From IMG/VR virus record IMGVR_UViG_3300042505_001397: a stretch of DNA of 64,000 nucleotides, one strand, 5' to 3'. Numbering within the stretch: the stretch's first letter is position 1; each line of letters opens with the position of its first letter. Positions 3,606 through 52,669 of the stretch are shown piece after piece. Under the pieces are notes generated by a model. It was given only the letters and a program-made list of their open reading frames with translations, did no database searches and was not told the origin of the DNA. Position numbers and translations under genes: made by a program. Source of the stretch: an uncultured virus (IMG/VR IMGVR_UViG_3300042505_001397) (taxonomy: Duplodnaviria; Heunggongvirae; Uroviricota; Caudoviricetes).

Positions 3606-3621
3606 GGGTTAATTTAACGGG
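3606..3621 (-). promoter_or_regulatory. 16-bp repeated motif, candidate phage RNAP promoter (copy 1)
   Basis: CCCGTTAAATTAACCC, identical in 4 places at gene-block boundaries, always the same orientation. Confidence 0.7.
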
Positions 3622-20300: not shown

Positions 20301-23300
20301 ACAGAAGCCAATATAGTTGCTCCAAGACTACTAATAGATTCGGACAGAATTCCAACAGAAGAAGCTGTATTGTCAGCTGCAGAAGCGATACTAGTGACAC
20401 CTGCAGTCAAGACTGTGAATGCCACAACCTTGTTTTTAAGTAACCCGAATAAAGAAGAGACACCATTTAACATTAGACTAAGCCAGCTTGTCATGAATGT
20501 TTTTAATTTTCCAAACGTGCTTGTTGTAAAATCCACAACAGTGGCACCCAAGCCTGCCGTTTGAAATATTCTTTTAAAACTATCTTTGAACTGATTGAAT
20601 AAATCCAGTATATTTTCAAAACTAGATTTCAAAGTAGTTCCACCTAGATCTGTGTTTATAAAAGTATCCCACACATTTGCCAGATCTTCGCCTAATTTTA
20701 CTTTCTTAAATGCCTTAGCGTTTGATGGATCTTCACCTAAAGGTGTATTTAAGAATGCTTCCGCTAAATTAAATTGCTTACTGGCATATCTTTCTGCATT
20801 TAAGCTGAGATTTTTGAATATTTGTTTAAAATCTTCAAAAACTTTTTCCGTGGCTACACCTAAAGCAGAGCTTGCAATAGTTGTGTTGGCCTTGCTTGTC
20901 ATTCTTTTAAATAACGCTCCAACATCAAAAAAGTTTGCCAAAGCACCTGTTGGGTCTAACTTTTTCAAAAGTTCTAAAAAAGCACCATAAGTATATTTAA
21001 CGATTGTAGTCACAAAACCTAATGTTTCGCCCAGTAACCGGTTACCCCCATCTTTTCCTAAAATTGCGTAACCAAGCAAAGGGACAGCAACTTGCGCTGC
21101 TTCAAAGATATTAATACTGTCTAACATTGCAGAAGCAATAGCAGCAGCACCAGCAGCTGCAAACGTTTTATCTTTGAATATATCTAAAAATTTACCGGAA
21201 AAGCTTGCGACACCAATTGAGCCTAATACTTCTGGAATCAAGCCTAGCGTAGCAGATTTCTTTTTTGTCTTTTCTCTTCCAAATAACAGTTCTTGAATAT
21301 CTTTAAAACCATTTTTTGCAAATACTGCGTAAACAGCGGCAATACCTGCTGCAGCATATAAGAGTCTGTTATGAAATAAGCTGAACATACTAGCTATGTC
21401 ATAAACCCATTTCGTAATGGGATCAAAGGATGTCATAAATGTTTCTACAAAATTCGGTAATTCCGCTATAACAATATCCAAAAGTCTTATAAATCCATTT
21501 GCTGCATTGCTTGCAATCAACCCTGCAACATTTCCCAAACCTTCTGCCAGTATAGGCATGGCTGCTGATAAGGCACCTTGTATTGCAAAATCAAACATTG
21601 ATGCAAAATAACTAAAAGCAGCCAGTTTTAATCGCGGACCTCCTGTCAACAATGCAAAGGCTGCAAGTATAGAAGCGGTTAAATTTGAAGCCAACTTACC
21701 TGCAAAATCTCCAATATTAAAATTTTTCATACCATTTAGTAAAACATCAAATGCTCGTGAAAACTTATTATCGGATTTTAAAATCACGTCTGATAGTTTT
21801 TCAAACTCTCTTTTTACAGACAATGCAAATGCTTTTATCGGAGAAACAGCCTTAAATATATTACTTGTGTACGAGATAACACCGTCAATCATGTCTGGCC
21901 AATAAGAATGACCAACAACCTTGTCGTAAATATCAAAGAAATAGCCTTTTATTTTATTAGAGAATTCTTTTATTTTCGAAATAACCTTCGATAAACTGCT
22001 ATCAAGTGTGCTAAGTATTTTATCGAATAAATTGTCAAATGTACTGCTGAACAAGTTTGTTATTTCAAAAGAAAATCCTTTTATGAATTTCTTAAATGCC
22101 CCAAATACTTGTCCATCTCCTCCTATTGAAAAAATGGAAGAAACATCAACTTTTTCAATATTCTTGATAAGGCTAGAAACACTCGAAAAAATACCTCGCA
22201 AAACCTTAAACAATCTTTGTGCAAGAGTTTTACCAAAGGCTTCATTGAACGTATCTCTTATTGAAAAAATCAAGAGCGCTTTTACGCTCAATAAAAATGT
22301 TTTTATACCAACAAGCAGCGGCACTAAATTAGGGGTGATTATATCTCTAAAAATACGAGATACAATAGAACCAAGCATTTTGAATTGACCCAGCAAGTTA
22401 TCTAAAGAAATATTGTTGAACTTAAGCAAGTATCCATCAGCGAGGCCAATTGTATATAAAATTTCTTGTATTTTGTAACCAATACGAGTTAAGTTTCTGT
22501 ATGCGTTATCAAGCACCACAAATTTATCGTCTAAGCGAAGTTTAGATCTCTCTATGTTCAGTAGCTCTAAATTGTCTATAAAATCTTTTAAACTATCTGA
22601 TCTAAATAGATTGGACCACGCTCTCTCAATACCCTTGTCACCAACTCTAAAAAACGATATATACTCATTTATTGCATCTAGCTTGTTGGTAAAAGGTATT
22701 ATAGTTTTTACCAAAACAGCATCAAATATTGCTTTATATTTTTTCATTGTTAACGAAAAAGAAGACAAAGCAACAAATGCACTAGATGAAACAATAGGTG
22801 CTAATGTGGCAAGGTTGTTGTAAAGGACTTTGAAAAAGCCCGCGACATTATAAAGTAACCTAGGTATTTCTTTTGCAGTTTCTTTTAAGTCTACCTTAAA
22901 TCCAAAGGAAAAATTTGCAGCGTTTTTCAATTTGATAAAAGTTGAAGCTAACTCATACATTGCCAAATTATATTTTATAAAGCCTGTTGTATCCACCAAA
23001 TTTGCTTTTACACTAAATATGGAGGAAAGATCTAAAGATTTCTTTGCTATTTTTTTAGATGCATTTAAAAAACCATCAATACTGTCTAATACATTAGCAG
23101 AACCCTTGTCAACGGTTTTTGCAGCATTTATCAAAAAAGCACCGAGGTCTTTTGTCAAGCTAAAGTTCTGGTCAAAAGATCCTAAAAAATATTCAAAAGC
23201 TTGTTTTAAGGCGGCAGTACCTTGTTGTACTGTTGCTGTTGTTTTTTTAAAATCAGCATCAGTAGAGGCTGCCATGTCCTCAATTGCTTTTATCACAGCA

Positions 23301-24049
23301 GAAGATGTGAGTTTACCTTCCGCACCAAATTGCCGTAGCTGTCCTGTACTCAACTTCATGCTTTTGGCAATGCCTTGTCCCAGATATGGTATTTGCTCTA
23401 GGACTGAGTTCAACTCTTCACCACGAAGAACGCCTGACGACAATGCCTGTCTTAGCTGCATAAGACCTGCAGAAATAGACTCTAAACTACTACCAGATAA
23501 CGACCCTGCTTGTGAGATAGTCTTTGTCAATTTTATTATCTGATCGCCTGCAATGTTCTTATCTTCCAAAGATTTTGCCACATCTGCATAAAGACCGGAC
23601 AATTGCTTGAAAGATCCCCTTGTTTCTGTAGACAATTTGTATAATTTTTGCTCAGTAGCTAAAAGGTCATATTGGCCTTTTGTAACTAATTTTAATTTAT
23701 TTTGCACTAAAGTCAAGTCATCACCAACTCTTGCAAAATAAGAAGCCGTACCAAGCCCTGCAAAAACCGTAACAATTCCAGCTACACTTTTTCCAAGTGT
23801 ACTCATAGATCTATTAGTAGTTACTGCTGAGTTGTTTATTTTATTTAATGCAGCCGAGCCTGTGTTTCCAAGCTTAAAAAGTGCATTAGACGATTTATCA
23901 GCACCTTTTGACATAAGGCTTATATTAGAAAATGCCGATTTAGAAATGCTTGCGCTATTGAAAGATGCAGCTAATGATTTATTCAAATCGCTTAAATTCT
24001 TTTTGGCTGATTTTGTATTCAAATCTACGTCAATTAAAACGCCAGACAT
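14306..24049 (-). CDS. tape measure protein (~3247 aa)
   Basis: tape-measure domain QLRQALSSGVLRGEELNSVLEQ; long helical Ala/Leu-rich body; C-terminal FASGG..GPGTGTSDSI.AMVSNGEFVVNA. Confidence 0.92.
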   Translation of the reverse strand: MSGVLIDVDLNTKSAKKNLSDLNKSLAASFNSASISKSAFSNISLMSKGADKSSNALFKLGNTGSAALNKINNSAVTTNRSMSTLGKSVAGIVTVFAGLGTASYFARVGDDLTLVQNKLKLVTKGQYDLLATEQKLYKLSTETRGSFKQLSGLYADVAKSLEDKNIAGDQIIKLTKTISQAGSLSGSSLESISAGLMQLRQALSSGVLRGEELNSVLEQIPYLGQGIAKSMKLSTGQLRQFGAEGKLTSSAVIKAIEDMAASTDADFKKTTATVQQGTAALKQAFEYFLGSFDQNFSLTKDLGAFLINAAKTVDKGSANVLDSIDGFLNASKKIAKKSLDLSSIFSVKANLVDTTGFIKYNLAMYELASTFIKLKNAANFSFGFKVDLKETAKEIPRLLYNVAGFFKVLYNNLATLAPIVSSSAFVALSSFSLTMKKYKAIFDAVLVKTIIPFTNKLDAINEYISFFRVGDKGIERAWSNLFRSDSLKDFIDNLELLNIERSKLRLDDKFVVLDNAYRNLTRIGYKIQEILYTIGLADGYLLKFNNISLDNLLGQFKMLGSIVSRIFRDIITPNLVPLLVGIKTFLLSVKALLIFSIRDTFNEAFGKTLAQRLFKVLRGIFSSVSSLIKNIEKVDVSSIFSIGGDGQVFGAFKKFIKGFSFEITNLFSSTFDNLFDKILSTLDSSLSKVISKIKEFSNKIKGYFFDIYDKVVGHSYWPDMIDGVISYTSNIFKAVSPIKAFALSVKREFEKLSDVILKSDNKFSRAFDVLLNGMKNFNIGDFAGKLASNLTASILAAFALLTGGPRLKLAAFSYFASMFDFAIQGALSAAMPILAEGLGNVAGLIASNAANGFIRLLDIVIAELPNFVETFMTSFDPITKWVYDIASMFSLFHNRLLYAAAGIAAVYAVFAKNGFKDIQELLFGREKTKKKSATLGLIPEVLGSIGVASFSGKFLDIFKDKTFAAAGAAAIASAMLDSINIFEAAQVAVPLLGYAILGKDGGNRLLGETLGFVTTIVKYTYGAFLELLKKLDPTGALANFFDVGALFKRMTSKANTTIASSALGVATEKVFEDFKQIFKNLSLNAERYASKQFNLAEAFLNTPLGEDPSNAKAFKKVKLGEDLANVWDTFINTDLGGTTLKSSFENILDLFNQFKDSFKRIFQTAGLGATVVDFTTSTFGKLKTFMTSWLSLMLNGVSSLFGLLKNKVVAFTVLTAGVTSIASAADNTASSVGILSESISSLGATILASVAISTVIGSLGKLNDAYRRGRDTFVKNAQEGLIAAKTAEIQQEKEAILKAFDLETPSKRKTKGMSKEEIQSLNAYNADILSKRRAIEGSFSLRQEAEISAIKSTAVAGDVTAGWKEVTKTIRESAGQVREFGSELFTYFRKSAAIEAVKNQLVGIKKQVSDILSLKGGTREQKRAVIAMRRSINALKEASTFSESFSAARVAFKESLDVGQIIIDSVNKGESSLVSEMQRLSSIVREKGLKNVFKDLTSPFRAISLLTKPLREAFSSVASAAFGIVAPILKLGLLGGGAGLLAVSLFGPGRTFADNLQWAYDTVREMFGLKPTTNFGKLSELKSILEALPSELKFDDILFKIDFSKIDDIQQKALKSALTDLASQYDSLRAEVAMQAAGATAAQERSRLSIERKIDSLLSRYDTKPDQTSAEISESTKKLLTKPEESISAYLVEKAVKFQKLREAGAYTSETGQGFRFSSESIQAALAEPLGAITSSIRSFVDNIKTVFSFLVTVVKYVTIAIVSLAAAFAAIVLFIPALTTSIAGFLAVAAGIGTALLNLDTIYSFFVDVFDSLKTFFVDFYSLVEQGALARLRKLRAEEKQSEDILSLARKINVELQKNFDKLPDTFKIKVASIKPEVTESLQKSLSASDISRYSQTGTTKSKRPGGLFSQNIITDLNAAPEYMLRAWEKVRDVIAEPVLTENSIALREGESAMDAMARTYQESLAAALEDPLKITEVETKVSIRDQAKLIQEDLNNAANGYTDAIDNFNKNMSEGNREALEASKEILRGAIAVGVEFDKKYGKEAFDYAAILDTKFALEDVRNAYQSIAGIKIDEKMLDLPVDASDISLIDSIRRQYEKALEKEPKSIEEANKQILKQIKYTKQLNAVKENALAKASYSTNLERESLLSGQPVSRIESFKTSVYSTKDFGKLSQFDAILKKIEQVKMEMDTLDPLNPASARTKASKEKVIKGQQALLDQMLPNKNTLDTLNSGLKSINVPEIDFEKYLKIPQAVSDKFIADIEKVKNAKDLFDKSVRDTKAPEIQAEALQKWRDELKGLTTDLENVYKVQVANYKAAPGENAATTARNIEKLIGEAPEPAIAGNKGKLAKFNELVQQRTKAELDLQAEKEKPIVDQARYGMLQSNLEGITKSLEKLKDTSVTTFDAIIGKFDELGFAVDKQMFASFSAKDQKRLKDMGQELVDIETKLNETSGKGLGKDTIKAIADRQENIMETARDIFVKYSAKSGKMMNAALGRLGLGEDAMVATFSKDTMMRLLDVDIFIENMKRALLKTKDISTYIINSQMISEKLKEVSKLKEFFDLRSSFEKSTEEGLLGGAKVAFDKIKSMSGLSNMSFKAFLNIPEESRKKTLEQSSSGEFLSKLNLASLTDDQKAIFNKLAAGADPVQIAKELANVRSPELEVLEDIRTATQKTANITPAESTSNTKDVPVLGTVKTEGSIGSKFIDPMAELKLDEYLKSIPEKAFNDLQKSTISNLGKMRNAFEHYNVSFTDEWLKASDLQAIQATELVTKIGEINKQLTEDVLPDDKIRELKKSVDDYRDQLDKIKEKIDELDMKKAAEDAGKAFSSDVSSGFKEGIKDLVKGKSTFKEFTAGMLDKVTGSITDTFIEGLTKPLTEKAGGMISDLGKGVFSVGSATFSSLFGDKSFLDSFNSTFGQSTDQGVSKNTAKTVTVLERIETLMKTMITGSQLESAGSALSKIPSLFAAASPLAGKLSSFTSDSAKYFTQSGGWDPVSMTNTGTTVGEGMMKMSKADMFSSLSDKSGMPTAVGDSAAKMEAAFTPKFESMANTMETSMSGALSSDSSIFSTLKTSFSEAFTGIGKLFTEGFGSIGNLFSSGGALSGIGNLFKSGGMFSFLGGFASGGAIRGPGTGTSDSIVAMVSNGEFVVNAAATKEHLGLLQALNSGKTPKFATGGLIGDTSAPVMLQPNMVDIKPVTSANAGSQQMINLTITGDISRQTKAEIYRMLPNIAEGVNNHNKERGYRR

Positions 24050-24060
24050 TAAAACCTCCA

Positions 24061-24088
24061 AAATAAAACCCCACGTTAAATGTGGGGT
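24061..24088 (-). terminator. intrinsic terminator upstream of the tape measure gene
   Basis: ACCCCAC/GTGGGGT stem followed by TTTATTTT. Confidence 0.65.
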
Positions 24089-27364: not shown

Positions 27365-28546
27365 TTAAGAATGGAAGATTGGCAAGATACCTAAAGATAA
27401 TGCTGAATCAGTTTTACGTTCCCATGTGCCTTTAGCATTTGAGATTGTGTTTACAGATGTTAACAAAGTAGGGGTGCTGACTTCGATTGCATATGCATAC
27501 TCTGCATCACTAGGGAATTTATCTTGTGCGCCAGCCCAGTTATAACCGGCAGGAGCCAATACATAGCCCCAACGATACCAAATTTCAGTAGAACCGCCAC
27601 CATTGTAAGAGCCTGCTGTACGTTGAATTTCAACGCCATCAGGAACAGCCAAAGGTTGCATTGCAATAGCACCTGGCAATACGATATAGCTGGTTTTTGT
27701 ACCAACGATATCTACGCCTGCGCCTGAATTGATTTTTGCCAATTCATTTGCACTTAAGCTTTGGTTAGCACGAGTTTGAATCAATCTGAATTTACCATTG
27801 AAAATGGTTTCAAACTGAACATTACCTTCAGTGACAACAATGCTGTTCACTAAGTTAGCTGCGCGTAAAGAAGCCAAAGTTTCTGGAGAGCAAACTAGAT
27901 AAGCCCACTCTGGTTCGTAGTCTTTGAAAGCCATGCCAAAAGCGCTTAAGAACGCTGTTGCACGAGCCGAGCCTTGTTCTGCAGCAGAAGCAGGAATGAC
28001 AGGTTTGCCTGCGCCTAAATCGACATAAAAACCATAGCGTTTGTCTTTAACATCATTTTCAAAGGTTTGACCACCCAAGCCTGGTTGACCTGAACCTGCT
28101 GCCGCACCGTTCAATGCTTCAGAAATTGCAACACCTTTCAAGATAGAAAGAATTGCATTATGCTCGTCTTGTGCTTGAGTTTCACCGAAATCACGACCGA
28201 TTTTTGCTAAACCGTCTTGTTGAGTGACAACTTGTTGCAAGTTAACTTTTTCTGCACCATGTGTACGAACTGTTTTTACATAGTTCAAGAAATCAGAAGC
28301 ATAGTTAGTTTTTGAACCAACAGCTGCAGAAGTCAAAGATGCAACATTGATTACAGGGTTTAATGGTTTAAACCAACGAACTTGGCCGATGAAGGTTTCA
28401 GTTGATGTATCAATGTTTGGGTTTGAGCCGACAATACCTGTACCCGACAATTTACGAGCGTTGGTATAGGCTTCATCAGAATAAGCACCGATAGTGCTTT
28501 GTAAAACAAAAGTTGTAGCGCCAGCTAAGTCTGTTTTTGCTGTCAT
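27365..28546 (-). CDS. major capsid protein
   Basis: 393 aa after the scaffold gene; GGGSTEIWYRWGYV..P.GY.W and C-terminal LGILPIFH. Confidence 0.8.
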   Translation of the reverse strand: MTAKTDLAGATTFVLQSTIGAYSDEAYTNARKLSGTGIVGSNPNIDTSTETFIGQVRWFKPLNPVINVASLTSAAVGSKTNYASDFLNYVKTVRTHGAEKVNLQQVVTQQDGLAKIGRDFGETQAQDEHNAILSILKGVAISEALNGAAAGSGQPGLGGQTFENDVKDKRYGFYVDLGAGKPVIPASAAEQGSARATAFLSAFGMAFKDYEPEWAYLVCSPETLASLRAANLVNSIVVTEGNVQFETIFNGKFRLIQTRANQSLSANELAKINSGAGVDIVGTKTSYIVLPGAIAMQPLAVPDGVEIQRTAGSYNGGGSTEIWYRWGYVLAPAGYNWAGAQDKFPSDAEYAYAIEVSTPTLLTSVNTISNAKGTWERKTDSALSLGILPIFHS

Positions 28547-28561
28547 TTAAAAATCCTTAAA

Positions 28562-29224
28562 TTATCTCCGAGGGAGTTTACCCTCAGTAGCGAGTTTTAG
28601 TACTTCCTCTTGGCTCATTTCAAACAGAGATTTGCCTGAAGAAGAATTTGTGTTTGTAGAGCTACTGTTTGAACTTCCAGTCCCATTTGATACTTTTGCT
28701 TTAAACAAGAAAGAATTATCTTCGGCTTCAGAAAAGACTTTTACAAAATCTTTGATTGAAATACCTGATTTGTGAACCCATGAGCCACTTTCGTTTTGGA
28801 TAAGTTGTCCCACAATTTCCTTACGAGCCATTTCTACAGCTTTTTCATTTCTGAATTGATAGCTTGATAAAGCCGACTGAACATCTCGATCACGAGTAAG
28901 CTCTACATTCCGTCTTTCCAACGCTTCTTTTTCAGCTTTGATTTCAGCCAATTGTAACTCATAAGCTTCTTTGTGTTTACCTTCATCTTGTAAACGCTGT
29001 AATTCTGCTTCTTTTTCTTTTTGTTTATAAGTGGCAAGCTCTTTCAGCACATCGTCTCTTGCACCGTATGCTTTATCTAACTTACCTTTAATGTCTTTGA
29101 GGCTTTCCTCTAACCGTTCTTGTACAAGTTTTTCCACTAAATCTTTTTCAGAATCAGTGTTGCTAGTGGTTCTGTCATCAACATTTGTATTTTCTGGATC
29201 TGTGTTTTCAGTATTTGTAGTCAT
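28562..29224 (-). CDS. capsid scaffolding protein
   Basis: acidic N-terminus, coiled coil, FLFK...G.G linker, short C-terminal helix; start reassigned to MTTNTEN. Confidence 0.75.
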   Translation of the reverse strand: MTTNTENTDPENTNVDDRTTSNTDSEKDLVEKLVQERLEESLKDIKGKLDKAYGARDDVLKELATYKQKEKEAELQRLQDEGKHKEAYELQLAEIKAEKEALERRNVELTRDRDVQSALSSYQFRNEKAVEMARKEIVGQLIQNESGSWVHKSGISIKDFVKVFSEAEDNSFLFKAKVSNGTGSSNSSSTNTNSSSGKSLFEMSQEEVLKLATEGKLPRR

Positions 29225-29322
29225 TGTTTTACCTTGAGTACGACTCGTTATGAGAAAAATACAATTTTTCTCTTGGAATTCATTTAGTATAATTTTGTAT
29301 TTAATTACAACTTCTATTATAC

Positions 29323-29338
29323 GGGTTAATTTAACGGG
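29323..29338 (-). promoter_or_regulatory. 16-bp repeated motif, candidate phage RNAP promoter (copy 2)
   Basis: CCCGTTAAATTAACCC just after the RNAP stop and upstream of scaffold/capsid. Confidence 0.7.
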
Positions 29339-29343
29339 TTTCG

Positions 29344-30775
29344 TTAACCTACTCCATACCATCCGTAATCATTTTTGAAATCTGAAGGAACTTCTTTTAC
29401 AATGTCTTCTTTCAAAAGAATATCAGACTCTTTAAGAACCTTTCCTCCGACAACAGATCTACCTGCAATCGGAATCAAACCAATGTCTATTGCTTCGTTC
29501 AGATATTGATCGTAAAGTTCTTGAGGCAAACCTCTTGCCCTCATTTCATCCAGAGTAGACACTATAACATTTCTGTCCAGTGTTTTTGCATAGATTTTTC
29601 TCAAAGCATTCCTAGCATTCAACATATCAGCTGCATTTGCAAAGAAAGCGTCATGAATAGTGCTCGTGGGAATGTTATTTTCCTTTCCCCATAGATGAAA
29701 ATTTTTAACAATTGTCGCGTCGTTAGAATGATTCCCGTTAACTGCAAAGGCAGTGCGCGCTCTTGTTGAATCGGCAATGTCATTTATTTTGCCGTCCTTA
29801 TTCATCATTTCTTCCCACCAAGTTAGTTCAGTCTTTTGAGGTACTTGCAATATATTGGTGGTCCACTCGCCTTGTTTATTCTTATAAAAAAGTCTTTCTT
29901 CAAATTGTTGTGTGAAATTTTGTTCGATCACTTTACCATCAAAATTAACCCAAGGAACATTTGTCCATGATTTAGGCATTTTATTAGCACTCAGTAATTC
30001 CACTTCAAACACATCTTGCTCTTGAATAAACTTACCTTTTAATAAATTAGAGGGTGTTGGTAATGCAGGCCTTAAGAAAGACAATTTAAAGTATTTACCA
30101 CCTGTACGTCTTGCTTCCGGTGTTGCTGTCCCATAAAGAATGTCATGTAGGTTACTATTTGGCTTATAAAAACTTAAGCGTTTCAAAGCTTTCTCACTTA
30201 AAGATTCTCCAGCTTTTAAGCCTAAAATTCTGCTAAGTGTATCTGGCAAAACATACCCTTTCTTTTTACTGCCAAACACTTTTTCTCTCACAATTGCATT
30301 CCAATTAAAAGCAGCTGTGGATGGTTTTGCATTATTCAGATAGTCTTCTGCAAGTCTACCAAAGAACTTCGTGAAGTCTTTTAAGATAGGTACTTGCTCT
30401 CTCAGATGTTCACTCATTATTTTTGCAATATCTTTAAAATCACCTGGAGTGACAATCCTTTCATAATTTAAAGAAAGTTTCTCCACAAGATCTTTTGTTT
30501 TAGGCTCCAAGAAATAAAGCTGATCTAGAATCTCGTCACCTGGATCTAACCCTTTATTAAAGATGTCTTTAACGTTTTCTCTAAGTGCTCTTAATTCATC
30601 CGCAGTCACTTGATCAAACTTATCGTACCTTGCAATACGAGCTGATATCTCATTGAGTACCGTTTCACGATCTGAAGCCTTAACAACTAACGTATCCTTG
30701 TCTTTGCCAAGAACCTTGGAGAGTTTACCCTCTACATTCAGTGTACCAGTCCTCTCACCAGCACCATAGAAAGTT
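29344..30775 (-). CDS. MuF-RNA polymerase fusion, exon 2 (end of motif B, motif C)
   Basis: frame open from A ACT TTC TAT GGT (TFYG) into the 421-aa ORF; AFAVNGNHSNDA and TIHDAF match T7 RNAP PNFVHSQDG and LIHDSF. Confidence 0.88.
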
Positions 30776-31401
30776 CATTTCATATAGGAATAGCCACTAT
30801 CACCGCGTTTTATGCGCTTGGTGATGGTCGAGTGATTAATGCCAAGCACTCTTCCAGCTTCTCTGGTAGATTCAAAATTACCAAAAGGTGTTATGACACC
30901 TTTTTTAAGATGATGTGCATTTCTACCATCTGCAATATCTCCGATTATTATTTCATCTTTCCAATAGTATCCTTTGTGTAAAGTACTTCTACTACCGGCT
31001 TTCTTTGATATTATTGCCTTACTAACTCCGTGTGCTTCTGCTGCAGCTGCAATAGTGGGAAATGACCCTAGAGGCGTTACGACACCTCTTGCAAGCAAGG
31101 AATTATTACCGCTCACAGCTTCTCTTGCCAGCTGATACATCACAGGTGACAGTCTTATACCATCTCTGCTGCACATTGTTGCATAAGCCGTTTTTAAGCC
31201 TCGTTCTTCTGGGAATAGCTTCATAAGCAACCAGTGCGCTAATAGATGGCATCTTGCATTTAAATATATCAGGTTTTCATAAGTGTCCTTACCACCTATA
31301 CATTTCGGAATTATATGATGTCTCTCATAATAACCGTTTATTGGCTTTGAAACACTACCGTGTTTCTCTATCAGATTTGTATATTGTTTTTCGTAATTCA
31401 T
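30775..31401 (-). CDS. intron-encoded HNH homing endonuclease with two NUMOD1/IENR1-like repeats
   Basis: ERHHIIPKCIGG...ENL..L..RCHLLAH; repeats VTPLGSFPTIAAAA and ITPFGNFESTREAG. Confidence 0.88.
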   Translation of the reverse strand: MNYEKQYTNLIEKHGSVSKPINGYYERHHIIPKCIGGKDTYENLIYLNARCHLLAHWLLMKLFPEERGLKTAYATMCSRDGIRLSPVMYQLAREAVSGNNSLLARGVVTPLGSFPTIAAAAEAHGVSKAIISKKAGSRSTLHKGYYWKDEIIIGDIADGRNAHHLKKGVITPFGNFESTREAGRVLGINHSTITKRIKRGDSGYSYMK

Positions 31402-31641
31402 TTTTATATTCCTATTGTATATATTACTATATAGATCAGACTATCTTTTACGTAAGCATCTTTTAAGAATAATACGTCACCGCGCTTCGAGATTGGCATA
31501 ATCTCTACAGACTTCATCAACTGTTCTAGTTGGTATGTCTTAGTCGTTGCACCTTCAAAAGAGTCCCCTCTTAAGCTTGGCTCAGGATTACCCTTTTGAG
31601 GGCTTCCCTGAATTCACGGTGTTTATACAAGGCAACTTTCT
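30776..31641 (-). mobile_element. group I intron (866 nt) in the RNA polymerase gene
   Basis: exon ends in U and intron ends in G; P1 with U-G pair; 8-bp P10 AGAAAGTT/AACTTTCT; core elements AATTCAGGGAA, AATCCTGAGC, GCAACGACTA, AAGATAGTC. Confidence 0.9.
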
Positions 31642-34600
31642 ACCATGTTTTGGGCTTTTGCAGCCTTTCTGAGGTCCTTCTCTGTAAGGCCCAGTTTCTC
31701 GTTGATCACTTTGAATCGCGGGTCGTTGAATGTCGAAGCTGCAATTTCATCATAAAGCCTACGCTTTTGATTTGTAGGTACAACATTAGATAACTCCGCG
31801 AGCTGTTTGTTACGAGTGGTCAACGCGATAATCTGAGCACCTGATGAAGAAGCATCTTGCTCTAGCGCCAATGAGATTTTATACTCTCTGAGCTTTTCCA
31901 AAGATGCTGCAGTATAGTTACCGCCTAAATAGTTATCAATCTTAGCTTGCTCTATGGCAAATCTGAAAAATTTACCCAGCTCTTCACCTTCAATCATATG
32001 CGTTATGTCAGCTTCAAGGATCGCTCTGATATCAGCAGGTTTCTTTGATAACATCAAATTACCAATTCTGACAATTTCAGGTCTCCACTTTTCAGCAACC
32101 TTTTGTCTTCCAGTGATTGTGAGTGAATTATATTTACCTTCAAACTCATCACTGAGACCACCTAAGAAAGCACCTATTTGATCTTGGAAATCTTTGAATT
32201 CTTCTGGACTGAAATTCTTTGCTTCTGCTGTATTGAGGAACGGTCTAAACGTCTCTCCAGATTGTGGTCCGATAAGACCTCTGTCATATATCCTTGCTCG
32301 ATGATCGATAAAAGGATGATTTGAAAAAGAGCGTCCATTAGCTCGTAACCACTGCATAGCTTTAAAGCGCTCATAAGCATCGCCACGAGATGCGATATAT
32401 TTTCGGTACTCATTACGCTCATCATAGAACTGAGCTTTTCCTCGATCATCTTTGAAGTAGAGTAATTTATCAATGAAATCATAAAAGTCTTCATCCACTT
32501 TGTATTTTGTCTTAGATGCCCATGTTAACGCATCCACCATATTCTTGTCAATAAACTCTTCAGGAAACTCACTAAAACTTGAAGATGATGTTATTGGAAT
32601 TCGTGTATCTTCCAAGCCCAATATACCTCTATCCATCCAATAAGTTTTATAACCTTCTCTGAACAGCAAACGATTATCATCTCTAGTGACGCTGACACGT
32701 AAACCCAAATCCACCTTACGATTCAATTGAGAATATTCTTGTATACGTGGATCTGTGACTCTTATATTATAAGCCATTGTGTCATAATATGGGCCAAAAT
32801 AAGCTCCACTCATGCGACTTTTCATTCTACGCTTTTGAACACCAAACGTTTCGACTTCAAAGAATTTGTCAACTTTTTTACTTTCAAGTATTTTCATGCC
32901 AAGATCAAACCACTGGCGTCTCCAACCATTTAAATTTGCCATGTTGTAAAGATCTCTGCCTAGCATTACAGCAAATTGATCCCTGTCTGGACTATCAGCC
33001 AAACTTAACCTGTGAGCAAATCTCAAATAAAATTGATGCAAGTCATCTTCAGATAATCTGCTTCTGATTTTAATTGGAATTTGAGGATCTAAAAATGTTC
33101 TTAATTCATTAGCGATCTTAGGAGCAACTTTATCTTCCCATTGATTTCTTGCTCTTATATTTTTATAAAAGTTATCGTGCAAATCATCAAGCTGAGTAGT
33201 ACCTAAGACAGGATCAATATAATTGTCTTGAAGTAACCGTTTCATCACATCTGTATCTTTTCGCAGTTGTGTTTCAATTGCATCAGAAACGTTCATCACA
33301 TCAAATTTTATTTGTGATTGAACAACGGCTTTAAAATTACCCCAGACTTCTTTATTATCACGATATCTGCCAAATACAATTCTCAAGTTATCTGCAATGA
33401 CGGCTCTTTCATTTACACTCATTGTGTCTGATAAATCGTTCACAAACTTGGTTATGAATTCCTTGTCTCTGTCCAAGAGCTTATCGCTATCTTTGATCAA
33501 TTGTAAGTTATTGTTGAGTACATAAGTGTTTGGCTGATAAAATCTAACGTCTTCATATCTACCTGTGGCGGGGTTGAATTTAATCTGATCTTCTCTCGGT
33601 GCAGAGGTTAGCATCCTATTTCTAGTAGCTTTCTTATTGTGAAGGAGAGTACCACGATAATTAGTATAGGAGAGTGTTCCTTCAAGCTCTTTAGTTTGTA
33701 ATATGTAGTAATCAAGTAATGTTTTCCTCAATTTATCATTCTGAATAAAATCATCCGGTGTGGTTGCCCATAACTGCATTGCATCTAATTTCGCCTTAGC
33801 GTTGGCAAACTTAATTGTGTCGCCATTTAACTCATAAGTGGAATCTGTTGCGGCTCTCAGTTGTTTAACGCCTAGACTCTCGCCCTTATAATTCACAAAT
33901 TGATCCACAGTCAGTTTACCTGTGTTCAAAAGATCAACCTTTTGATAATCACCTAAATGTTTAAGTTGAATATCTCTCGGTTGTCGCATGAGCCAATCAT
34001 TGTAGCTTTCTTTCAGTGGCGTTTGACCATCATAATAAGCAATTTGCTCTTTTGTTAAACCTTCTAAGTTTCTTCGTCTAACTTGAGCAACACCTTCTAG
34101 CTTAGAAATGTCATCCCAGGATTTAAAAACTGGAACTGTTGTGGAGCGGCAATTAAAGTGCGCAGGAGGCAGATGCCCCGTGTCCCCCATATCATAGACA
34201 TGCCCGTCGCGGTGCGCACACAGAGGTGTCGTCCTCGCGTCCAGAACGGCCACATACTGCCACCCTCTGAGTGCCTTTTCGTTGGCACGGTAAACAGCGT
34301 GGTCAACCTGAGCGTGGACGCTGGTGATTGCGGTGACTACCAAGGATCTAGACTGCATTCTGGTTATATTGTGAATGTTGCCTTTACGAATTTCCAAAGC
34401 AATTTCATTTGTTGTCTTACCTTCAGAAATACCTTTGCGAATTAAAGCTTCAATTCTTTTCTTTTCAGAAGTACTCACACCTGACCAACCAGAAGCAAGT
34501 GTTCTATTTTCAAACAAAGGTTTTTCAAGAACAATCTCTTCCGATATACGTCTTTGCGGTCTTTCTGTGCGCCATATCTTACCCATTGTTGTCTCAACAG

Positions 34601-34877
34601 TTTGATAAGCAAAAGATGCTTGATCTGCTGCAAAATCTAATAGGGAACGCTTTGATGTGTTATGAGCTTCACGATAAGTACGTAATAATTCCTTGTCCAA
34701 AGCGTCTTTGAATTTCTTTGATTTTAAGTCGGACGAACCTACCAACTTATCTAACCTAATAACGTGGCCATCAATGATTACTTCAATCTTATCATTGACA
34801 CCTTTCTCAAATAAGCGTATCATTGCCGCTCTGTCTAGTGCTTTGTCATATATTTCAGTATTTACATTAATGGCCAT
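31642..34877 (-). CDS. MuF (SPP1 gp7-like) domain fused to T7-type single-subunit RNA polymerase, exon 1
   Basis: MuF: YVAVLDARTTPLC..RDG..PPAHFNCRST; RNAP: DHRARIY..GPQ, motif A EQDASSSGAQ, motif B RKAAK. Confidence 0.88.
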
Positions 34878-35564: not shown

Positions 35565-35704
35565 TTCTTTTTCCTCTTTTGTTTAGTACGTTTAGCCACA
35601 TCTAACGCAATTGCAATTGCCTGTTTTTGTGGTTTACCTGATTTCATCTCGGTAGAAATATTCTCAGAGACAGTTTTCTTTGAATAACCTTTCTTAAGGG
35701 GCAT
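35561..35704 (-). CDS. small basic phage protein (47 aa, not in ORF track)
   Basis: [34 protein letters not shown]...KRKKK*; AGGAG RBS; ATGA overlap with next gene. Confidence 0.7.
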
Positions 35705-37268
35705 TATTTGCTCCTATTGCGTTTGCATTTTCTGCATTCTGATCTGTTGGCATCAACAACCTATCGGCAGTTATTTCTTGAATAGCTTCCTCATCATTGT
35801 AGTCAGGCGACACCAAATCATTTTGTTTAAGTAAAACCAACCAAACAGATCTCGGCAACAAACCTTGTTGATACCACTCAGTTGCCAATCGCAACCAATC
35901 AGCTCCAAGAGGAACAGGATTAAAATCTGTGGACAGTGAAAATTCTATTTCAGAAACCCTTAATTGCAAATCGTAACGCCAATTCAGCATAAATACAATA
36001 ACTTGCGCCATGATGTTGCTAACTTTGTTATTCAAGGTACCTAACTGTGCTGTTTGAGCTGCATTTCTGATTTCCAATGCGACACCTGATTGTTCAGTTT
36101 CAGGACTCAACATTCTGATACCAAGCTTAGCCATTTCTTCAATACTGGAAGCAATTGCTCTATCCATGTCTTGAAGCGCTGCTGTCGGAGTTTCCAAAAC
36201 CTTGGCATCATCGCCTTGTCTCAAACGTAACCATGTACCCAAACCACCACTCACAATCTCATCAAACTCTTCATCAGTCATGTCTGAAATGATCACCGGT
36301 GTATACGTAGCAGCTCCATAAAGTAAATGATTACGCCTACTAATTTTGTTGTATAGGCTAATTTCCTTATCAATAATAGCGGCTAACATTGGTTCGACTA
36401 AGTCTATTGAACCATTTAAGGGCCAGGCTGGTATAATACTGATCGGCTCGCCATTTGCCATTATATTGCTGAATGTATCAACCAAATCAAATTTGATTGC
36501 ATTGTTTGCAATTTCAACATTTTGTTTGGCCCCTCCAATCACGGGAACACTGGTGGTATTCGAAGATCTTTGGAATTTTCTTATCTGATATTTACCTTCA
36601 ACAAGCTCATGGACGTACACAGTGTCTTTGAATGTTGGATGGAACTCATTCTCATCATAAGATTCTTCAAACACTCTGACAATTACTCTGTCTAAAATTG
36701 CCTTGCCATACTGATTCTCGCTGACTCTCCAGTTTACAATTTGTTCAGCTTTTCTGAGTACTGGATATGGTTTGAAATTTAACAACTCTTCTTTTGCGTA
36801 TGATTCTGCATTTTCCACAACAGGGTAATCCACAAAAACCCATGCTCTAGATGTTTGTACTTCTTCCCAAAGAGCTGCATCCAAAAATGCAGCTAAAGGA
36901 GAATCATCCTTGCCAAATTCGTTTATGATCCAATCATAAGCTTCTTCAGGAATACCATCAGGTAACTCTAATAAAGGTTTCTTTCTGAGCAATCCACCAA
37001 TAATCATTTTTGCAAATTGAGCGGTGATGCCTGGTAATTCAGCTTCAGCTTTGTAAAATTTGTATTGAGCTTGACTCATACTTGGTGAAAACGGTATCAA
37101 AAGATTTTTAAATGTTAATACATCAATATTTGCATCAAAGTCTTTTACATATTGTTCACCACTGCATACAGCTCTACATTTTTGCCATAAAGGGCTCAAT
37201 GACTCATAAGCTGCATTTGGATCTGCGACTGTTTTAACAGCCGATTGTGCTGCATTTGTTACTGCCAT
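35694..37268 (-). CDS. portal protein
   Basis: 524 aa between terminase and head genes; [21 protein letters not shown] patterns. Confidence 0.8.
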
Positions 37269-38445: not shown

Positions 38446-40911
38446 TTAAGCTGGTGCGAGTGTTGTTACTGTTCCCGATGCGCCTCTATACTTTAAAGCA
38501 CCTGCTTCTATGTATATTTGGCCTACACCTGTTGGTGATGTTGTAGGCGCTGTACCATTGGGCATTGCAAGTACATTTACTGCTGATGTACCTGTGGTAG
38601 CCCCCATCAATTTCAAATTCCTGTCTCCATCTATTAATAAACACTCTCTTCTTCTGTCAGAAGTTTTGGCTCCTGAAGGAGTGTTTCCAAGTATAAATGT
38701 ACTACTTCCATCTGCTTCGTGATTACAAAATATATGACCTGTTGCTATGGCTGATTCATTTTGAAAATCCAAAAAGCTAGTACCCTTCCTTGTGGCATTG
38801 CCATAAATGTTTCTGATGGACATTCCAGAGTACTGTGTGGAACCATAATTTATAAGTAAATAATTATCTACTTGTAATTTACCAGCCAAGTAATTATCGG
38901 CAGTACCGTTCATGTAGAGGTTATATCGACCTGTGCCAGCAGCAATCGCGCCATAGAAACCGTAATCATTAATTGCACCTGTAAGGGTAGCATCAGCAAT
39001 AAACCCATACTGATTATTAACAGTAGAGCCAGCGCCTATCGTTCCCTGCGTAGCAAAGTAATGTCGCATATTATTTAGCGTGAAAGAAGCTGCCAATGTG
39101 GATGCATTGGTAGAAAAATAATTGCCACCACCGGTCACATCACTTTGAACGACGCCAATTTGAGTTATGCCGTAAGCTTGCGTAGCACCAGTCATCGCTT
39201 TACCAATAGCAACGGTAGTTGCGGTCAAAGAAGTAGTACCAACACCCAAATTACCTGCTAAATAGTTGTCAGCAGTGCCTGCCATGTAGAGGTTATATCG
39301 ACCTGTACCAGAAGCAATCACGCCATAGAAACCGTAATTGTTGACTGCACCAGTTAAACTATTATTTGCAATAAACCCATATTGAGCCGATGCTGTAGAG
39401 CCTGCACCAATAGTCAATTGATTCGCAGAGAAATGTTGTATTGAACCAAGAGTAAAGGCTGCAGCAGTTGTTCCAATTGCCGAAATATAACCTCTAGCCG
39501 AGTTTGTTACATCTGAAGATGCTGTTGTATATACATTTACTGCATTTTGGGTAGTGCCGCCCGTGAGAGTAGATCCAACACTAATCCCAGATGTGTCAGA
39601 AAATGGGAGTGTGCCAATCCCCAATTTACCCGCCAAATAGTTGGCAGCAGTACCATTCATATACAGATTATATCTACCTGTGCCAGAAGCAATCGCTCCA
39701 TAAAAACCGTAATTATTAGTTGCACTAGTCAATGCAGAACTTACATAAAAACCATTCTGGTATGTGACTGAGGTGCCAGTACCAAATACACCCTGTTCTG
39801 CAAGATAATGGGTCACATGCGACGTGGATAAGTTATTTACTGTCTGAGCAAAGGATTGGAAATATCGACCTTGCGCCGTAACATCTGATTGGATAATACC
39901 ATCACACAAGATACTGTGAGAAGTTGTCGATCCAGTAATATTTTTAGCTACACGTAAACTAACGTTTGATTGAGGTCCCGCGCCAATCCCCAGTGAACCT
40001 GCCATATAGTTATCAGCAGTACCCGCCATATATAAATTGTAACGACCCGTACCAGCCGCTAAATCACTGACGAATGCATAGTTATTTGTTGCCCCAGTAA
40101 AAGTTTGGTTAACAAAAAATCCACGTTGGGTAGTGACAGCAGAACCACTACCTATAGTACCTTGAATGATAGAATAATGATTAAGATTAGTTAAAGTAAA
40201 GGCAGCAGCTGCTGTGCTAGGGTTACTAATAAACTGATGTGCTGTCGTAGTGACATCACTTTGAAGTGTTTGTATGTTTCTAAACCCATAAGTGGTTGTA
40301 GCACCAGTTGCATTAATTGACAATTTAATCCCAGTATCACCACCAGGGACTGCCCCTATTCCGATAGTGCCATTGAATTGAAATCTTTGTAGACTGTCAA
40401 TTGTCAATGCTTCTGTGAGAGTGCTTGTTCCATCTTTTGTTGTGAAGAAAGACAACTTACCTGGCATATCACCAGCAGCGGGCGTGGTATCAACATAAGC
40501 TCGTATAGCAGCAGCCCCAACATAAGCTGTACCATCGTAGCCATAAAAATTTAGTAAACCTAACTCATCCCCTGCACTAACAATTGTTTTTGCTGAGTTT
40601 GAACCTCTGGATTTGAAAAATGTATGTCTAAAAGCAAAAGCATTGGCTGTATTCGACTCGCAAGCAATGTCTCTGCCCAAGCCAGTATCGACAACATACA
40701 CAGGGCCGCTGGCTGTATTGGTTCCTCCTATTAACAACTTACCCGCTAAATAATTATCAGCATTGCTAGATGTATATAGATTGTAGGAACCATTACTCAC
40801 CACTTTTGTTAAATCTGTATTCAAGTTGATGAAATTATTATCAACTTCTGCATTTGTGAGAGGGCTACCTTTGGCGGTAGCACCAGTTTCACGAGTGACA
40901 ATAGTTGCCAT
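38446..40911 (-). CDS. fibre protein with ~125-aa repeats
   Basis: N-terminal KGSPLTNAEVDNNF; five YNLY-x4-A-x-NY-x-AG repeats; C-terminal GALKYRG.SGT.TTLA. Confidence 0.75.
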   Translation of the reverse strand: MATIVTRETGATAKGSPLTNAEVDNNFINLNTDLTKVVSNGSYNLYTSSNADNYLAGKLLIGGTNTASGPVYVVDTGLGRDIACESNTANAFAFRHTFFKSRGSNSAKTIVSAGDELGLLNFYGYDGTAYVGAAAIRAYVDTTPAAGDMPGKLSFFTTKDGTSTLTEALTIDSLQRFQFNGTIGIGAVPGGDTGIKLSINATGATTTYGFRNIQTLQSDVTTTAHQFISNPSTAAAAFTLTNLNHYSIIQGTIGSGSAVTTQRGFFVNQTFTGATNNYAFVSDLAAGTGRYNLYMAGTADNYMAGSLGIGAGPQSNVSLRVAKNITGSTTSHSILCDGIIQSDVTAQGRYFQSFAQTVNNLSTSHVTHYLAEQGVFGTGTSVTYQNGFYVSSALTSATNNYGFYGAIASGTGRYNLYMNGTAANYLAGKLGIGTLPFSDTSGISVGSTLTGGTTQNAVNVYTTASSDVTNSARGYISAIGTTAAAFTLGSIQHFSANQLTIGAGSTASAQYGFIANNSLTGAVNNYGFYGVIASGTGRYNLYMAGTADNYLAGNLGVGTTSLTATTVAIGKAMTGATQAYGITQIGVVQSDVTGGGNYFSTNASTLAASFTLNNMRHYFATQGTIGAGSTVNNQYGFIADATLTGAINDYGFYGAIAAGTGRYNLYMNGTADNYLAGKLQVDNYLLINYGSTQYSGMSIRNIYGNATRKGTSFLDFQNESAIATGHIFCNHEADGSSTFILGNTPSGAKTSDRRRECLLIDGDRNLKLMGATTGTSAVNVLAMPNGTAPTTSPTGVGQIYIEAGALKYRGASGTVTTLAPA

Positions 40912-40926
40912 AGATAGCCTCTTGAA

Positions 40927-41379
40927 TTAAGATAGTGTTATTTTCCAGGTAATTGTCAAGGTATCTAGTGCACCCTTATTAATTACACCAAATACTGTTC
41001 TTGCAACCATTGTGCCAGCAGAAACGGCATTAAACAAGCCTGCTTCAGTTAAAGCACCTGTGCCTGAACCTGCACCGAAAGTGGCAACATATTGAATGGC
41101 ATCGTTTGCCACGTTTGTTGTCACAATTGTTGTTGAGCTCAATGTCACTCGCGTGCTTTCTGTGACCAAGGCTGTTTGACCTGAAGATGCCGCTGTTGTG
41201 CCTGTACCAACTGCCATGTGAGAGACCGCTGCTGCTGTGGCGTCTTTTGCTCTGCTAATTAAATAAGCAAGACCGCTGGCAACCACTAAGTTATGCTCTT
41301 CTTGTTGTTTTACATTACCAAACTCATCTGTCAATACAAAACTGACAATGCCGTTTGACTTAATTGAATCGTTAATCAT
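40927..41379 (-). CDS. virion structural protein (fibre-anchoring module)
   Basis: HNLVV..G, HMAVGTG, GALTEAGLFN, INKG..DTLTITW. Confidence 0.65.
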   Translation of the reverse strand: MINDSIKSNGIVSFVLTDEFGNVKQQEEHNLVVASGLAYLISRAKDATAAAVSHMAVGTGTTAASSGQTALVTESTRVTLSSTTIVTTNVANDAIQYVATFGAGSGTGALTEAGLFNAVSAGTMVARTVFGVINKGALDTLTITWKITLS

Positions 41380-41388
41380 TTAAAGTCC

Positions 41389-42339
41389 TTAAATTAAATA
41401 GTTTGTGCCAACATAGTCAGAGACTACATATATTTGTGAAAAATAATTTTGAATATTTAATTTCACACTTTCAGTCAGTGAAGATGTGTCCAGCATTTGT
41501 TTAGAGAGATTTACTTGTAATACGTCAGAGTGAATTGTAAGATCATTTAAAATTTTACCCCCTGAAAACGCCATCATTTCACTTCTTGTGACTGTGTCAT
41601 TCTGTACTTTATTCGGTTCTAATCTGATGCTGTCTGTTTTTGTGAATGAATCATTTAATCGAGTACTTAGATCAACCTTGAATACATCTGAAGATGAGCT
41701 AATGTCTACCAGAAATTTGCCGATTGATGCATATTGGTCATCATCTATATTTGCAGCTCCTAAGAAATCATCTGTCGGATTTACAACTTCGTAGATGTTC
41801 CTGTTAAAACCAGACACAAAAGAAATAACATCTTGAGTACTTAAATTTTCATATTTGAAACCGCCATAGGTTAATGAGACTGAATCTATGGTTGTGTTTG
41901 TTGCATCATTAAACGGTTTTGATAAACCCAAGGATACTGTGTCTTGCTTACTGAATGTGTCAGCCAGAATTTTACTGAAATCAAATTTTGGAAAATCATT
42001 GAGATACAAAGGCTCAGTGTTTGTTTTACCAATATTGAATAAAACCCTTTCCGTCAATACTTGAGTATCAATTAAAGTTTTCCCAAAGCTTTTATTGAAA
42101 ATGTCAGAAATAGAAAATGCGTCTTGATTATATTTGAATAATGCTTTTTGTGGTATTATTTCTTCACCAAAGCCAGTCAGTGAAACATCTAATCCTGTAT
42201 CAAAAGTATTTGTGCTTGTCTCTTTTAAACTGTATGTGGTGGAAATCTCTTTGGTTGATGCAGTAGCAGAAATTTCTACATCTTTCTTTGTTACATTCAA
42301 ACTTATATTAGTTGCAAAAATACCTTTATATGATGTCAT
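41389..42339 (-). CDS. virion structural protein with short degenerate repeats
   Basis: S/T/D-rich with repeated K-x2-x-D units. Confidence 0.55.
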   Translation of the reverse strand: MTSYKGIFATNISLNVTKKDVEISATASTKEISTTYSLKETSTNTFDTGLDVSLTGFGEEIIPQKALFKYNQDAFSISDIFNKSFGKTLIDTQVLTERVLFNIGKTNTEPLYLNDFPKFDFSKILADTFSKQDTVSLGLSKPFNDATNTTIDSVSLTYGGFKYENLSTQDVISFVSGFNRNIYEVVNPTDDFLGAANIDDDQYASIGKFLVDISSSSDVFKVDLSTRLNDSFTKTDSIRLEPNKVQNDTVTRSEMMAFSGGKILNDLTIHSDVLQVNLSKQMLDTSSLTESVKLNIQNYFSQIYVVSDYVGTNYLI

Positions 42340-46042: not shown

Positions 46043-46058
46043 GGGTTAATTTAACGGG
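46043..46058 (-). promoter_or_regulatory. 16-bp repeated motif, candidate phage RNAP promoter (copy 3)
   Basis: CCCGTTAAATTAACCC just downstream of a strong terminator and upstream of the packaging block. Confidence 0.7.
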
Positions 46059-46085
46059 TTTGTCATAACCTGAGTTGCCTCTCAG

Positions 46086-46145
46086 AAAAAAAAAAAAAAA
46101 ACTCTTCCCTCATGACCACCATAAAGGCAGCCACGAGGGAAGAGT
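46086..46145 (-). terminator. strong intrinsic terminator
   Basis: ACTCTTCCCTC/GAGGGAAGAGT 11-bp stem followed by about 15 T. Confidence 0.8.
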
Positions 46146-52653: not shown

Positions 52654-52669
52654 GGGTTAATTTAACGGG
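52654..52669 (-). promoter_or_regulatory. 16-bp repeated motif, candidate phage RNAP promoter (copy 4)
   Basis: CCCGTTAAATTAACCC; overlaps the stop codon of ORF 52662-53021. Confidence 0.7.

Follow-up and report, generated by a model that had tools for sequence, protein, structure and literature searches.

Virion-borne RNA polymerases (RNAPs) have been described in N4-like podophages, crAss-like phages and some jumbo phages, which each package the enzyme in their own way, and the N4 enzyme, gp50, is a protein of about 3500 amino acids (aa). The minor head protein gp7 of phage SPP1 binds to the portal and leaves the capsid with the DNA. According to Iyer et al. (2017; PMC5512222), gp50 combines a polymerase with regions for injection and encapsidation, N4-like virion RNAPs are confined to N4-like phages, and MuF domains fused to enzymatic domains are likely delivered into the host. 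Here, a stretch of 64,000 nt from an uncultured virus of the Caudoviricetes (IMG/VR record IMGVR_UViG_3300042505_001397), referred to at its full length as the window, was found to contain a gene in which a MuF-type minor head protein is predicted to be fused to a complete T7-type single-subunit RNAP. The gene, here called MuF-RNAP, is interrupted within the polymerase part by a group I intron (Table 1).

Three minus-strand open reading frames (ORFs) are present at the locus: 31623–34877 (1084 aa), 30775–31401 (208 aa) and 29344–30609 (421 aa). Joining 34877–31642 to 30775–29344 yielded 4668 nt with 1555 codons, a single terminal TAA and no internal stops. Motif B (RKAAKAQNMV/TFYGAG, aa 1070–1085) is split by the intron, and joining of the exons restores its R-x3-K-x7-YG pattern. 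The splice joint was confirmed by two independent sequence comparisons. The uninterrupted homologue P0004 (1558 aa), showing 82% identity to the window protein over exon 1 and 83% over exon 2, reads through from KAQNMV (ending at residue 1082) to TFYGAG (starting at residue 1083). In the viral contig G002 (96% identical), base 1964 aligns to window position 30774 and base 1966 to window position 31642, so that G002 lacks exactly positions 30776–31641. In the predicted ligated-exon sequence, exon 1 ends in …AACATGGT directly before exon 2. An earlier reading of this DNA from its letters (the sequence-only reading) had joined the ORFs into a single 1555-aa frame. Its coordinates proved exact, the joint being matched by both intron-less relatives, and all motifs it had quoted (LDARTTPLC, aa 212–220; PPAHFNCRS, aa 237–245; DHRARIY; QDASSSG; motif B; NHSNDA; IHDAF) were found in the joined protein; what it had missed was the nature of the gap between the exons, a group I intron that encodes a homing endonuclease.

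By structure prediction and fold matching, aa 1–345 is a complete minor head protein of the MuF/SPP1-gp7 type, followed by a linker, a helical region extending to aa ~564 and the polymerase at aa ~565–1555. The Pfam domain Phage_Mu_F (PF04233) was detected with 48.8 bits (cut-off 29.6; E = 1.4e-12). An AlphaFold2 model of the N-terminal 560 aa showed a predicted local distance difference test score (pLDDT) of 86.5, with a disordered stretch at aa 346–353. The model of the MuF part gave 92 matches in BFVD at E ≤ 0.001, and the named ones were head morphogenesis or minor capsid proteins of 350–400 aa that aligned over their whole length; the best compact match had a template modelling (TM) score of 0.77 and a root-mean-square deviation (rmsd) of 3.8 Å over 375 columns. 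A Foldseek search with the N-terminal 560 aa matched no solved structure in the PDB at E ≤ 0.001. Like SPP1 gp7, the F proteins of phage Mu and the MuF-effector fusions, the window protein has an N-terminal MuF part, a gene placed between portal and scaffold genes and a C-terminal enzymatic cargo, and its N-terminal model matched that of the MuF-ADP-ribosyltransferase (1192 aa) from Xanthomonas phage Xp12. It differs from the MuF polymorphic toxins and polyvalent proteins in that the predicted cargo is a template-dependent polymerase of ~1000 residues that would work on the DNA of the phage itself, neither a toxin nor a host-modifying enzyme.

The part from aa ~565 to 1555 is, judged from its modelled fold, a full T7-type single-subunit RNAP with intact catalytic residues, and is predicted to be active. 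The Pfam family RNA_pol (PF00940) was found above cut-off in exon 2 (26.7 bits, cut-off 22), and exon 1 scored 17 bits, below it. The polymerase was modelled not on the window protein itself but, using 30 sequences, on P0097, a naturally N-terminally truncated homologue of 1128 aa that corresponds to residues 415–1558 of P0004 and is 73% identical to it. The model (pLDDT 82; predicted TM score 0.78) had T7 RNAP as its top Foldseek match (E = 1e-18). In VIA-align comparisons, T7 RNAP gave Z 29.9 (526 residues aligned, rmsd 3.6 Å), the mitochondrial RNAPs Z 25–27 and N4 mini-vRNAP a weaker Z 16–19.5. Other alignments reached T7 residues ~30–883, which shows that a T7-like N-terminal domain is present in the model. 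Invariant in the 30 sequences, down to 21% identity, were the motif A Asp, the motif B residues K, Y and G, and the D residues of NHSNDA and motif C, and the D-x-R-x-R-x-Y motif and the two His of NHSNDA and IHDAF were nearly invariant; we take the catalytic residues to be equivalent to those of T7 RNAP by residue number. The enzyme thus shares motifs A, B and C and the catalytic residues with T7 RNAP and the mitochondrial RNAPs, and differs from them by ~560 additional N-terminal residues (MuF and helical region) and bigger insertions in the fingers. Sequence similarity to T7 RNAP is barely detectable, and the polymerase part is, unlike T7 RNAP, free of cysteine.

A variable in-frame insertion hot spot was observed after AKIDNYL, just before motif A (window ~31901–31946, aa ~978–992). 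The window protein contains no insert there, and relatives contain at least three unrelated kinds of ~100–180 aa (G002 at 2225–2682; P0005, P0013, P0053, P0087, P0096, P0119 and P0123), one of them with the sequence DGxHRL, presumably a ParB-like signature. The ~143-aa in-frame insert of G002 and others was considered as an intein and rejected; it is a variable inserted domain.

As in N4 gp50, a single-subunit RNAP of T7 fold is part of a larger protein, here with a presumed virion location, and a second T7-like RNAP, for the present phage expected from its relatives, makes a relay from a virion enzyme to a second enzyme possible. The MuF-RNAP protein is a member of PF04233 and PF00940 and not of the N4 gp50 family. 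No sequence relation to gp50 was found, none of the 69 phmmer matches of exon 2 (see below) being of gp50 size or type. The protein is far from gp50 in length, with 1555 aa, and its packaging module would be the N-terminal MuF part instead of the C-terminal region used by N4, no C-terminal flank being present. In addition, the virion is long-tailed according to the tape measure and tail terminator genes of the window.

Sequence comparison of homologues shows the fusion of MuF and RNAP to be the normal state of the family. A word-indexed search, with 8000 candidates scored, gave 445 clusters (90% identity) at E ≤ 0.001; the 120 matches listed were 68–99% identical, and 80 of these were at least 1500 aa long. 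An exhaustive phmmer search with exon 2 against 1.84 billion representatives gave 69 matches, with no classical T7-like or N4-like polymerases among them. Phage_Mu_F (E ≤ 0.001, near residues 125–260) was present in all 18 representatives of at least 1400 aa, exceeding the Pfam cut-off in 16, and RNA_pol was present at E ≤ 0.001 in 16 of the 18, exceeding the cut-off in 15. Three shorter representatives (780–812 aa) with RNA_pol only and one (765 aa) with neither domain may be fragments.

The DNA stretch is present in many lake-water metagenomes, two of which may be its source. A megablast search with the locus against 50,697 phage records gave no match, and the polymerase part was found in four of these records, namely EBPR siphovirus 1, DSS3_VP1 (two records) and DSS3_PM1, where the gene is annotated as 'head protein', 'head morphogenesis' or 'minor head protein-like'. 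As public records name the gene only in this way, the polymerase is invisible to annotation-based surveys. A prophage origin was rejected, since only two loci, both in one metagenome-assembled bin, were found among 185,579 species genomes. The principle of MuF cargo is known; within the main text of Creative Commons-licensed PMC papers and bioRxiv, we found neither a description of a MuF-RNAP fusion nor a report of an RNAP as MuF cargo.

The closest homologue from a cultured phage was gp108 of Roseophage DSS3_VP1 (YP_010105321.1, 'head morphogenesis', Naomviridae; 1463 aa), with 36% identity to exon 2. DSS3_VP1 shares with the window the order portal, MuF-RNAP, scaffold and capsid, the replication block and, with the lineage, a second RNAP (gp080), and differs in that its record has no intron at this site. 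The term 'RNA polymerase' does not occur in the main texts of two papers on DSS3_VP1, and 'MuF' is absent from the main text of the Curr Biol 2021 paper. DSS3_VP1 also has deoxyuridine-containing DNA (dU-DNA), and the dCMP-deaminase/HD pathway it has for this is absent from the close relatives of the window. A link of this clade to dU-DNA was rejected on the basis of PF00383 in none of five related genomes and HD above cut-off in none of the five, with one sub-threshold match; the fused polymerase is therefore not tied to dU-DNA.

Indirect support for a role in the virion comes from the cysteine-free polymerase part, the single MuF domain per genome and the second RNAP in relatives, with which an N4-like relay could operate. 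The protein has only two cysteines, located in the MuF motif, and the other ~1300 aa contain none; no cysteine follows the MuF motif in 99 of 102 homologues of at least 1400 aa. The virion proteins of the window are similarly poor in cysteine (tape measure, 0 of 3251 residues; major head protein, 1 of 393; portal, 2 of 524), and its enzymes contain 1.6–2.8%. Exactly one PF04233 match per genome, located inside the RNAP frame, was found in all five related viral genomes, four of them rated complete, and no other MuF gene was detected in the window by Pfam and PHROGs. A second RNAP was found in all five genomes (Pfam, 124–221 bits; ~745–760 aa with 217–221 bits in three of them) and in DSS3_VP1, under the annotation 'RNA polymerase'. 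It shows 19% identity to the fused enzyme and contains 9–10 cysteines in 743–760 aa (7 in 735 aa in DSS3_VP1). Since the lineage has this second polymerase, transcription of the complete genome does not have to fall to the fused enzyme. In G002 (40064–42161) and G005 (71554–73603) the second RNAP was observed to be split into two frames, and Rfam matched nothing at E ≤ 0.01 in the ~830-nt gap of G002.

On the main points the sequence-only reading held up. It had placed a MuF/SPP1-gp7 domain at the N-terminus, borne out by PF04233 above cut-off and the whole-length minor head protein matches in BFVD, and a T7-type RNAP in the remainder, for which exon 2 scored above the PF00940 cut-off and the fold match reached Z 29.9. 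The position of the gene in the usual MuF slot between portal and scaffold agrees with the gene order of the window and of DSS3_VP1, and the survey of homologues it had proposed found MuF in every long representative. Its account of a fusion with intact catalytic residues stood; the second polymerase of the lineage it had overlooked. Its further proposal, that MuF would act as a tag for packaging and ejection and that transcription would not depend on host RNAP, has the indirect support described above, and its interpretation as a whole is partly supported.

From these features we infer that the MuF-RNAP protein is probably carried in the capsid by means of its MuF part, ejected with the DNA and used to start phage transcription, and packaging, ejection and targets are all to be understood in this way. 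The protein would be made late, together with the head genes, and through the MuF module a small number of molecules would enter the procapsid at the portal, in the manner of SPP1 gp7. At the next infection the polymerase would exit the capsid with the DNA and give immediate phage transcription, including that of the gene for the second T7-like polymerase, which would then take over.

A candidate promoter is the 16-mer CCCGTTAAATTAACCC, one copy of which begins directly downstream of the MuF-RNAP gene. The window has four copies where 0.4 would be expected, all of them intergenic and on the coding strand. Behind the gene, an exact copy of the 16-mer is kept in 43 of 61 loci, among them loci of relatives with a protein identity of only ~65%; each of five genomes has 3–8 copies, and 30 of 30 sites there lie on the coding strand. 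It was not found in DSS3_VP1. In four of the five genomes a copy, often with one mismatch, is located 2–7 kb upstream of the second RNAP, and whichever enzyme reads the 16-mer would consequently also transcribe the second RNAP gene. This arrangement fits a relay started by the virion enzyme; positive autoregulation of the second RNAP would look identical, and the 16-mer could belong to either polymerase. We tentatively suggest a lineage-wide relay that starts without host RNAP, in which the capsid enzyme, as MuF cargo, would leave through the tail with the DNA and read the 16-mer promoters including that of the second RNAP; the widespread lineage in question would span the lake-water relatives, an activated-sludge phage and the marine Naomviridae with DSS3_VP1. 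As a separate observation, the plus strand has long stretches of A (of T on the coding strand) at 50–89 and 46078–46101, the second lying shortly upstream of a small hairpin and of one 16-mer copy.

Several points weigh against delivery of an early-transcribing enzyme from the capsid. A 179-kDa protein could pass a siphovirus tail only in unfolded form, and the 3251-aa tape measure suggests a very long tail to traverse. The accessible part of the DSS3_VP1 paper contains no virion proteomics. Most seriously, no separate class of early promoters for the fused enzyme was found, the 16-mer heading late, middle and second RNAP-containing blocks alike. The second RNAP is inferred for this virus from relatives; mapping with G002 puts its gene ~6–8 kb past base 64000 of the window. 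Finally, a sequence profile of 18 homologues matched polymerases in the PDB weakly (N4 RNAP2, E = 0.04; T7 RNAP, E = 0.5). The top match of that profile, an unrelated archaeal protein (E = 5e-4), was rejected, and as the RNAP matches were non-significant the fold search was used instead.

Two other roles for the polymerase have to be weighed, and we consider both unlikely. T7 and N4 pull their genome into the cell by transcribing it, and the enzyme might be packaged via MuF for a main job other than early expression: genome pulling by transcription, making the primer for first-round replication, or holding the leading DNA end. The cysteine-free part, the sole MuF domain and the intact catalytic residues suit such a job as well, and the second RNAP could cover ordinary expression. 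This role is compatible with early transcription and nothing in the sequence separates the two, but the 16-mer upstream of the block containing the second RNAP in four of five genomes fits a starter enzyme that expresses genes.

The other role, equally improbable in our view, is that of a mainly late or general RNAP in the producing cell, with MuF merely a head protein and packaged copies incidental and not delivered in active form. The location of the gene in the late head operon, with the 16-mer directly after its stop and heading the scaffold and capsid genes, agrees with this, and from the T7-like N-terminal domain one would expect ordinary double-stranded promoters to be recognized. This explanation leaves unaccounted for why ~1300 aa are kept free of cysteine in nearly all long homologues while the second RNAP has 9–10, and why the fusion was never split in the 18 long representatives.

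A polyprotein that is cut during head maturation at the short, low-confidence linker between the modules (aa ~346–353), freeing the polymerase in the cytoplasm or the capsid, is very unlikely: no prohead protease was detected in the window by Pfam and PHROGs, the head module looks SPP1-like, having a scaffold and lacking a protease, and cleavage inside the capsid would still amount to delivery of a virion polymerase. That the polymerase part is degenerate and inactive, kept as DNA-binding or structural cargo, as its low Pfam scores (17–40 bits) and a DxxGR motif reading DxxAR might suggest, is hardly credible given a catalytic Asp pair and motif B residues (K, Y and G) that are invariant in 30 sequences down to 21% identity, the whole T7 fold kept at Z 29.9, and homing introns in at least four conserved motifs of relatives, as expected under strong constraint.

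If capsid delivery of the fused enzyme is true, a T7-type RNAP fused to MuF would be a new packaging route in siphoviruses of ordinary size and a second, independent invention of the N4 strategy. MuF delivery, so far associated with toxins and host-modifying enzymes, would also come to include a template-dependent polymerase, and so point to a general platform for protein delivery. The family is common in lake metagenomes and has a member in a cultured marine phage whose host, Ruegeria pomeroyi DSS-3, is tractable, which makes capsid delivery directly testable. The enzyme may also be of interest for enzymology as a highly diverged T7-like RNAP that lacks cysteine and has a short and very conserved candidate promoter.

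The interruption of the gene was assigned by Rfam to Intron_gpI (RF00028), which matched at 31714–31417 on the minus strand (64.6 bits, gathering threshold 50; E = 4e-14) and was the sole Rfam family at gathering threshold in the window. The ORF inside the intron contains HNH (PF01844; 31.6 bits, cut-off 21.4) and NUMOD1 (27.4 bits, cut-off 22.8) domains, and its TGA stop takes in the terminal G of the intron and the first base of exon 2, overlapping the 3′ splice site. As read from the sequence, exon 1 has a terminal U, which is expected for the 5′ exon of a group I intron, and G is the final base of the intron. P1 would be formed by exon ACAUGGU and intron nt 9–15 (GCCUUGU) with six of seven pairs, including the terminal U.G, and P10 by intron nt 1–7 (AGAAAGU) and exon 2 nt 1–7 (ACUUUCU) with all seven. 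EBPR siphovirus 1 and one further locus (L003) contain the same intron at the same site, and in EBPR siphovirus 1 one pair of P10 is changed on both sides from A-U to U-A, a compensatory change. Self-splicing of the group I intron is the best explanation, from these comparisons, of how the mRNA would be made continuous. Two freshwater RNA libraries contained contigs 90–99% like parts of both exons and none bridging the joint, and these contigs may stem from carry-over of DNA.

Introns of the I-HmuI type, as in the Bacillus phages SPO1 and SP82, likewise combine a group I core with an HNH and NUMOD ORF in a conserved catalytic motif of a polymerase gene. The present intron differs from them in that the interrupted gene encodes an RNAP fused to MuF and that the ORF extends to the 3′ end of the intron and has its stop codon over the 3′ splice site.

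The gene was observed to be a hot spot for introns. ORF truncations among the 120 homologues (P0010–P0122) indicate at least four sites of insertion, each within a conserved motif: behind KAQNMV (19 homologues), RKAAKA (11), AFAVNG (5) and PQSGETF (1, in a 99%-identical relative), with one unplaced. Locus L013 contains three Rfam group I introns inside 2.1 kb. Elsewhere in the window, the ribonucleotide reductase gene (57857–60608, minus strand) consists of two ORFs (59538–60608 and 57857–58747) separated by a LAGLIDADG endonuclease ORF (58840–59460), which is flanked by two group I matches below the gathering threshold of 50 (45.9 and 38.3 bits); this is probably a second intron of the window.

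Table 1. Positions of the MuF-RNAP gene, its parts and neighbouring features in the 64,000-nt window.
Feature	Position	Strand	Remarks
MuF-RNAP gene, whole	29344..34877	−	Exon 1, group I intron and exon 2; spliced product 1555 aa, 179 kDa
Exon 1	31642..34877	−	Codons 1–1078 and first 2 nt of codon 1079; last base T
Exon 2	29344..30775	−	Last base of codon 1079, codons 1080–1555 and TAA; holds TFYGAG, NGNHSNDA and IHDAF
MuF minor head protein module, aa 1–345	33843..34877	−	Predicted structure and fold matches
Pfam Phage_Mu_F core, aa 141–247	34137..34457	−	Includes the only two cysteines of the protein, C220 and C243
Linker and family-specific helical region, aa 346–564	33186..33842	−	No known fold matched
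DHRARIY (D-x-R-x-R-x-Y palm motif), aa 858–864	32286..32306	−	D, R, R and Y invariant or nearly so in 30 homologues
Motif A, EQDASSSGAQ, aa 1006–1015	31833..31862	−	Contains the invariant catalytic Asp
NGNHSNDA, aa 1425–1432	29716..29739	−	In exon 2
Motif C, IHDAF, aa 1452–1456	29644..29658	−	In exon 2
Group I intron, 866 nt	30776..31641	−	Inside motif B, within codon V1079; ends in G; Rfam 64.6 bits
HNH and NUMOD1 homing endonuclease ORF, 208 aa	30775..31401	−	Fills the 3′ part of the intron
16-mer CCCGTTAAATTAACCC (coding strand)	29323..29338	−	Starts 5 nt after the MuF-RNAP stop, ahead of scaffold and capsid genes
Other copies of the 16-mer	3606–3621, 46043–46058, 52654–52669	−	Plus-strand coordinates; intergenic
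Portal gene, upstream neighbour	35694..37268	−	PHROG 145, E = 2e-58; PF13264 in homologues
Scaffold gene, downstream	28562..29362	−	
Major head protein gene, downstream	27365..28546	−	

The window is a siphovirus genome with all genes on one strand. In the order of transcription, replication genes, terminase, a tail-fibre-like gene, endolysin, portal and two small ORFs precede MuF-RNAP, which is followed by scaffold, major head protein, adaptor, tail terminator, the tape measure, distal tail proteins and holin. The tape measure (14306–24061, minus strand), with 3251 aa and without cysteine, implies a very long tail or extra domains. The tail-fibre-like gene (38446–40911; 821 aa) contains four diverged copies of 188 nt with a spacing of ~372 nt at 38876–40179. 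Between the primase/helicase and exonuclease genes, an ORF at 62457–62927 (minus strand) was assigned to the PHROG families 'NAD synthetase' and 'homing endonuclease', and at the equivalent position DSS3_VP1 carries an ORF annotated 'NAD synthetase'. The replication region also encodes, at 57539–57844 on the minus strand, a small protein of the N4 Gp49/Sf6 gene 66 family (PF13876, 91.9 bits).

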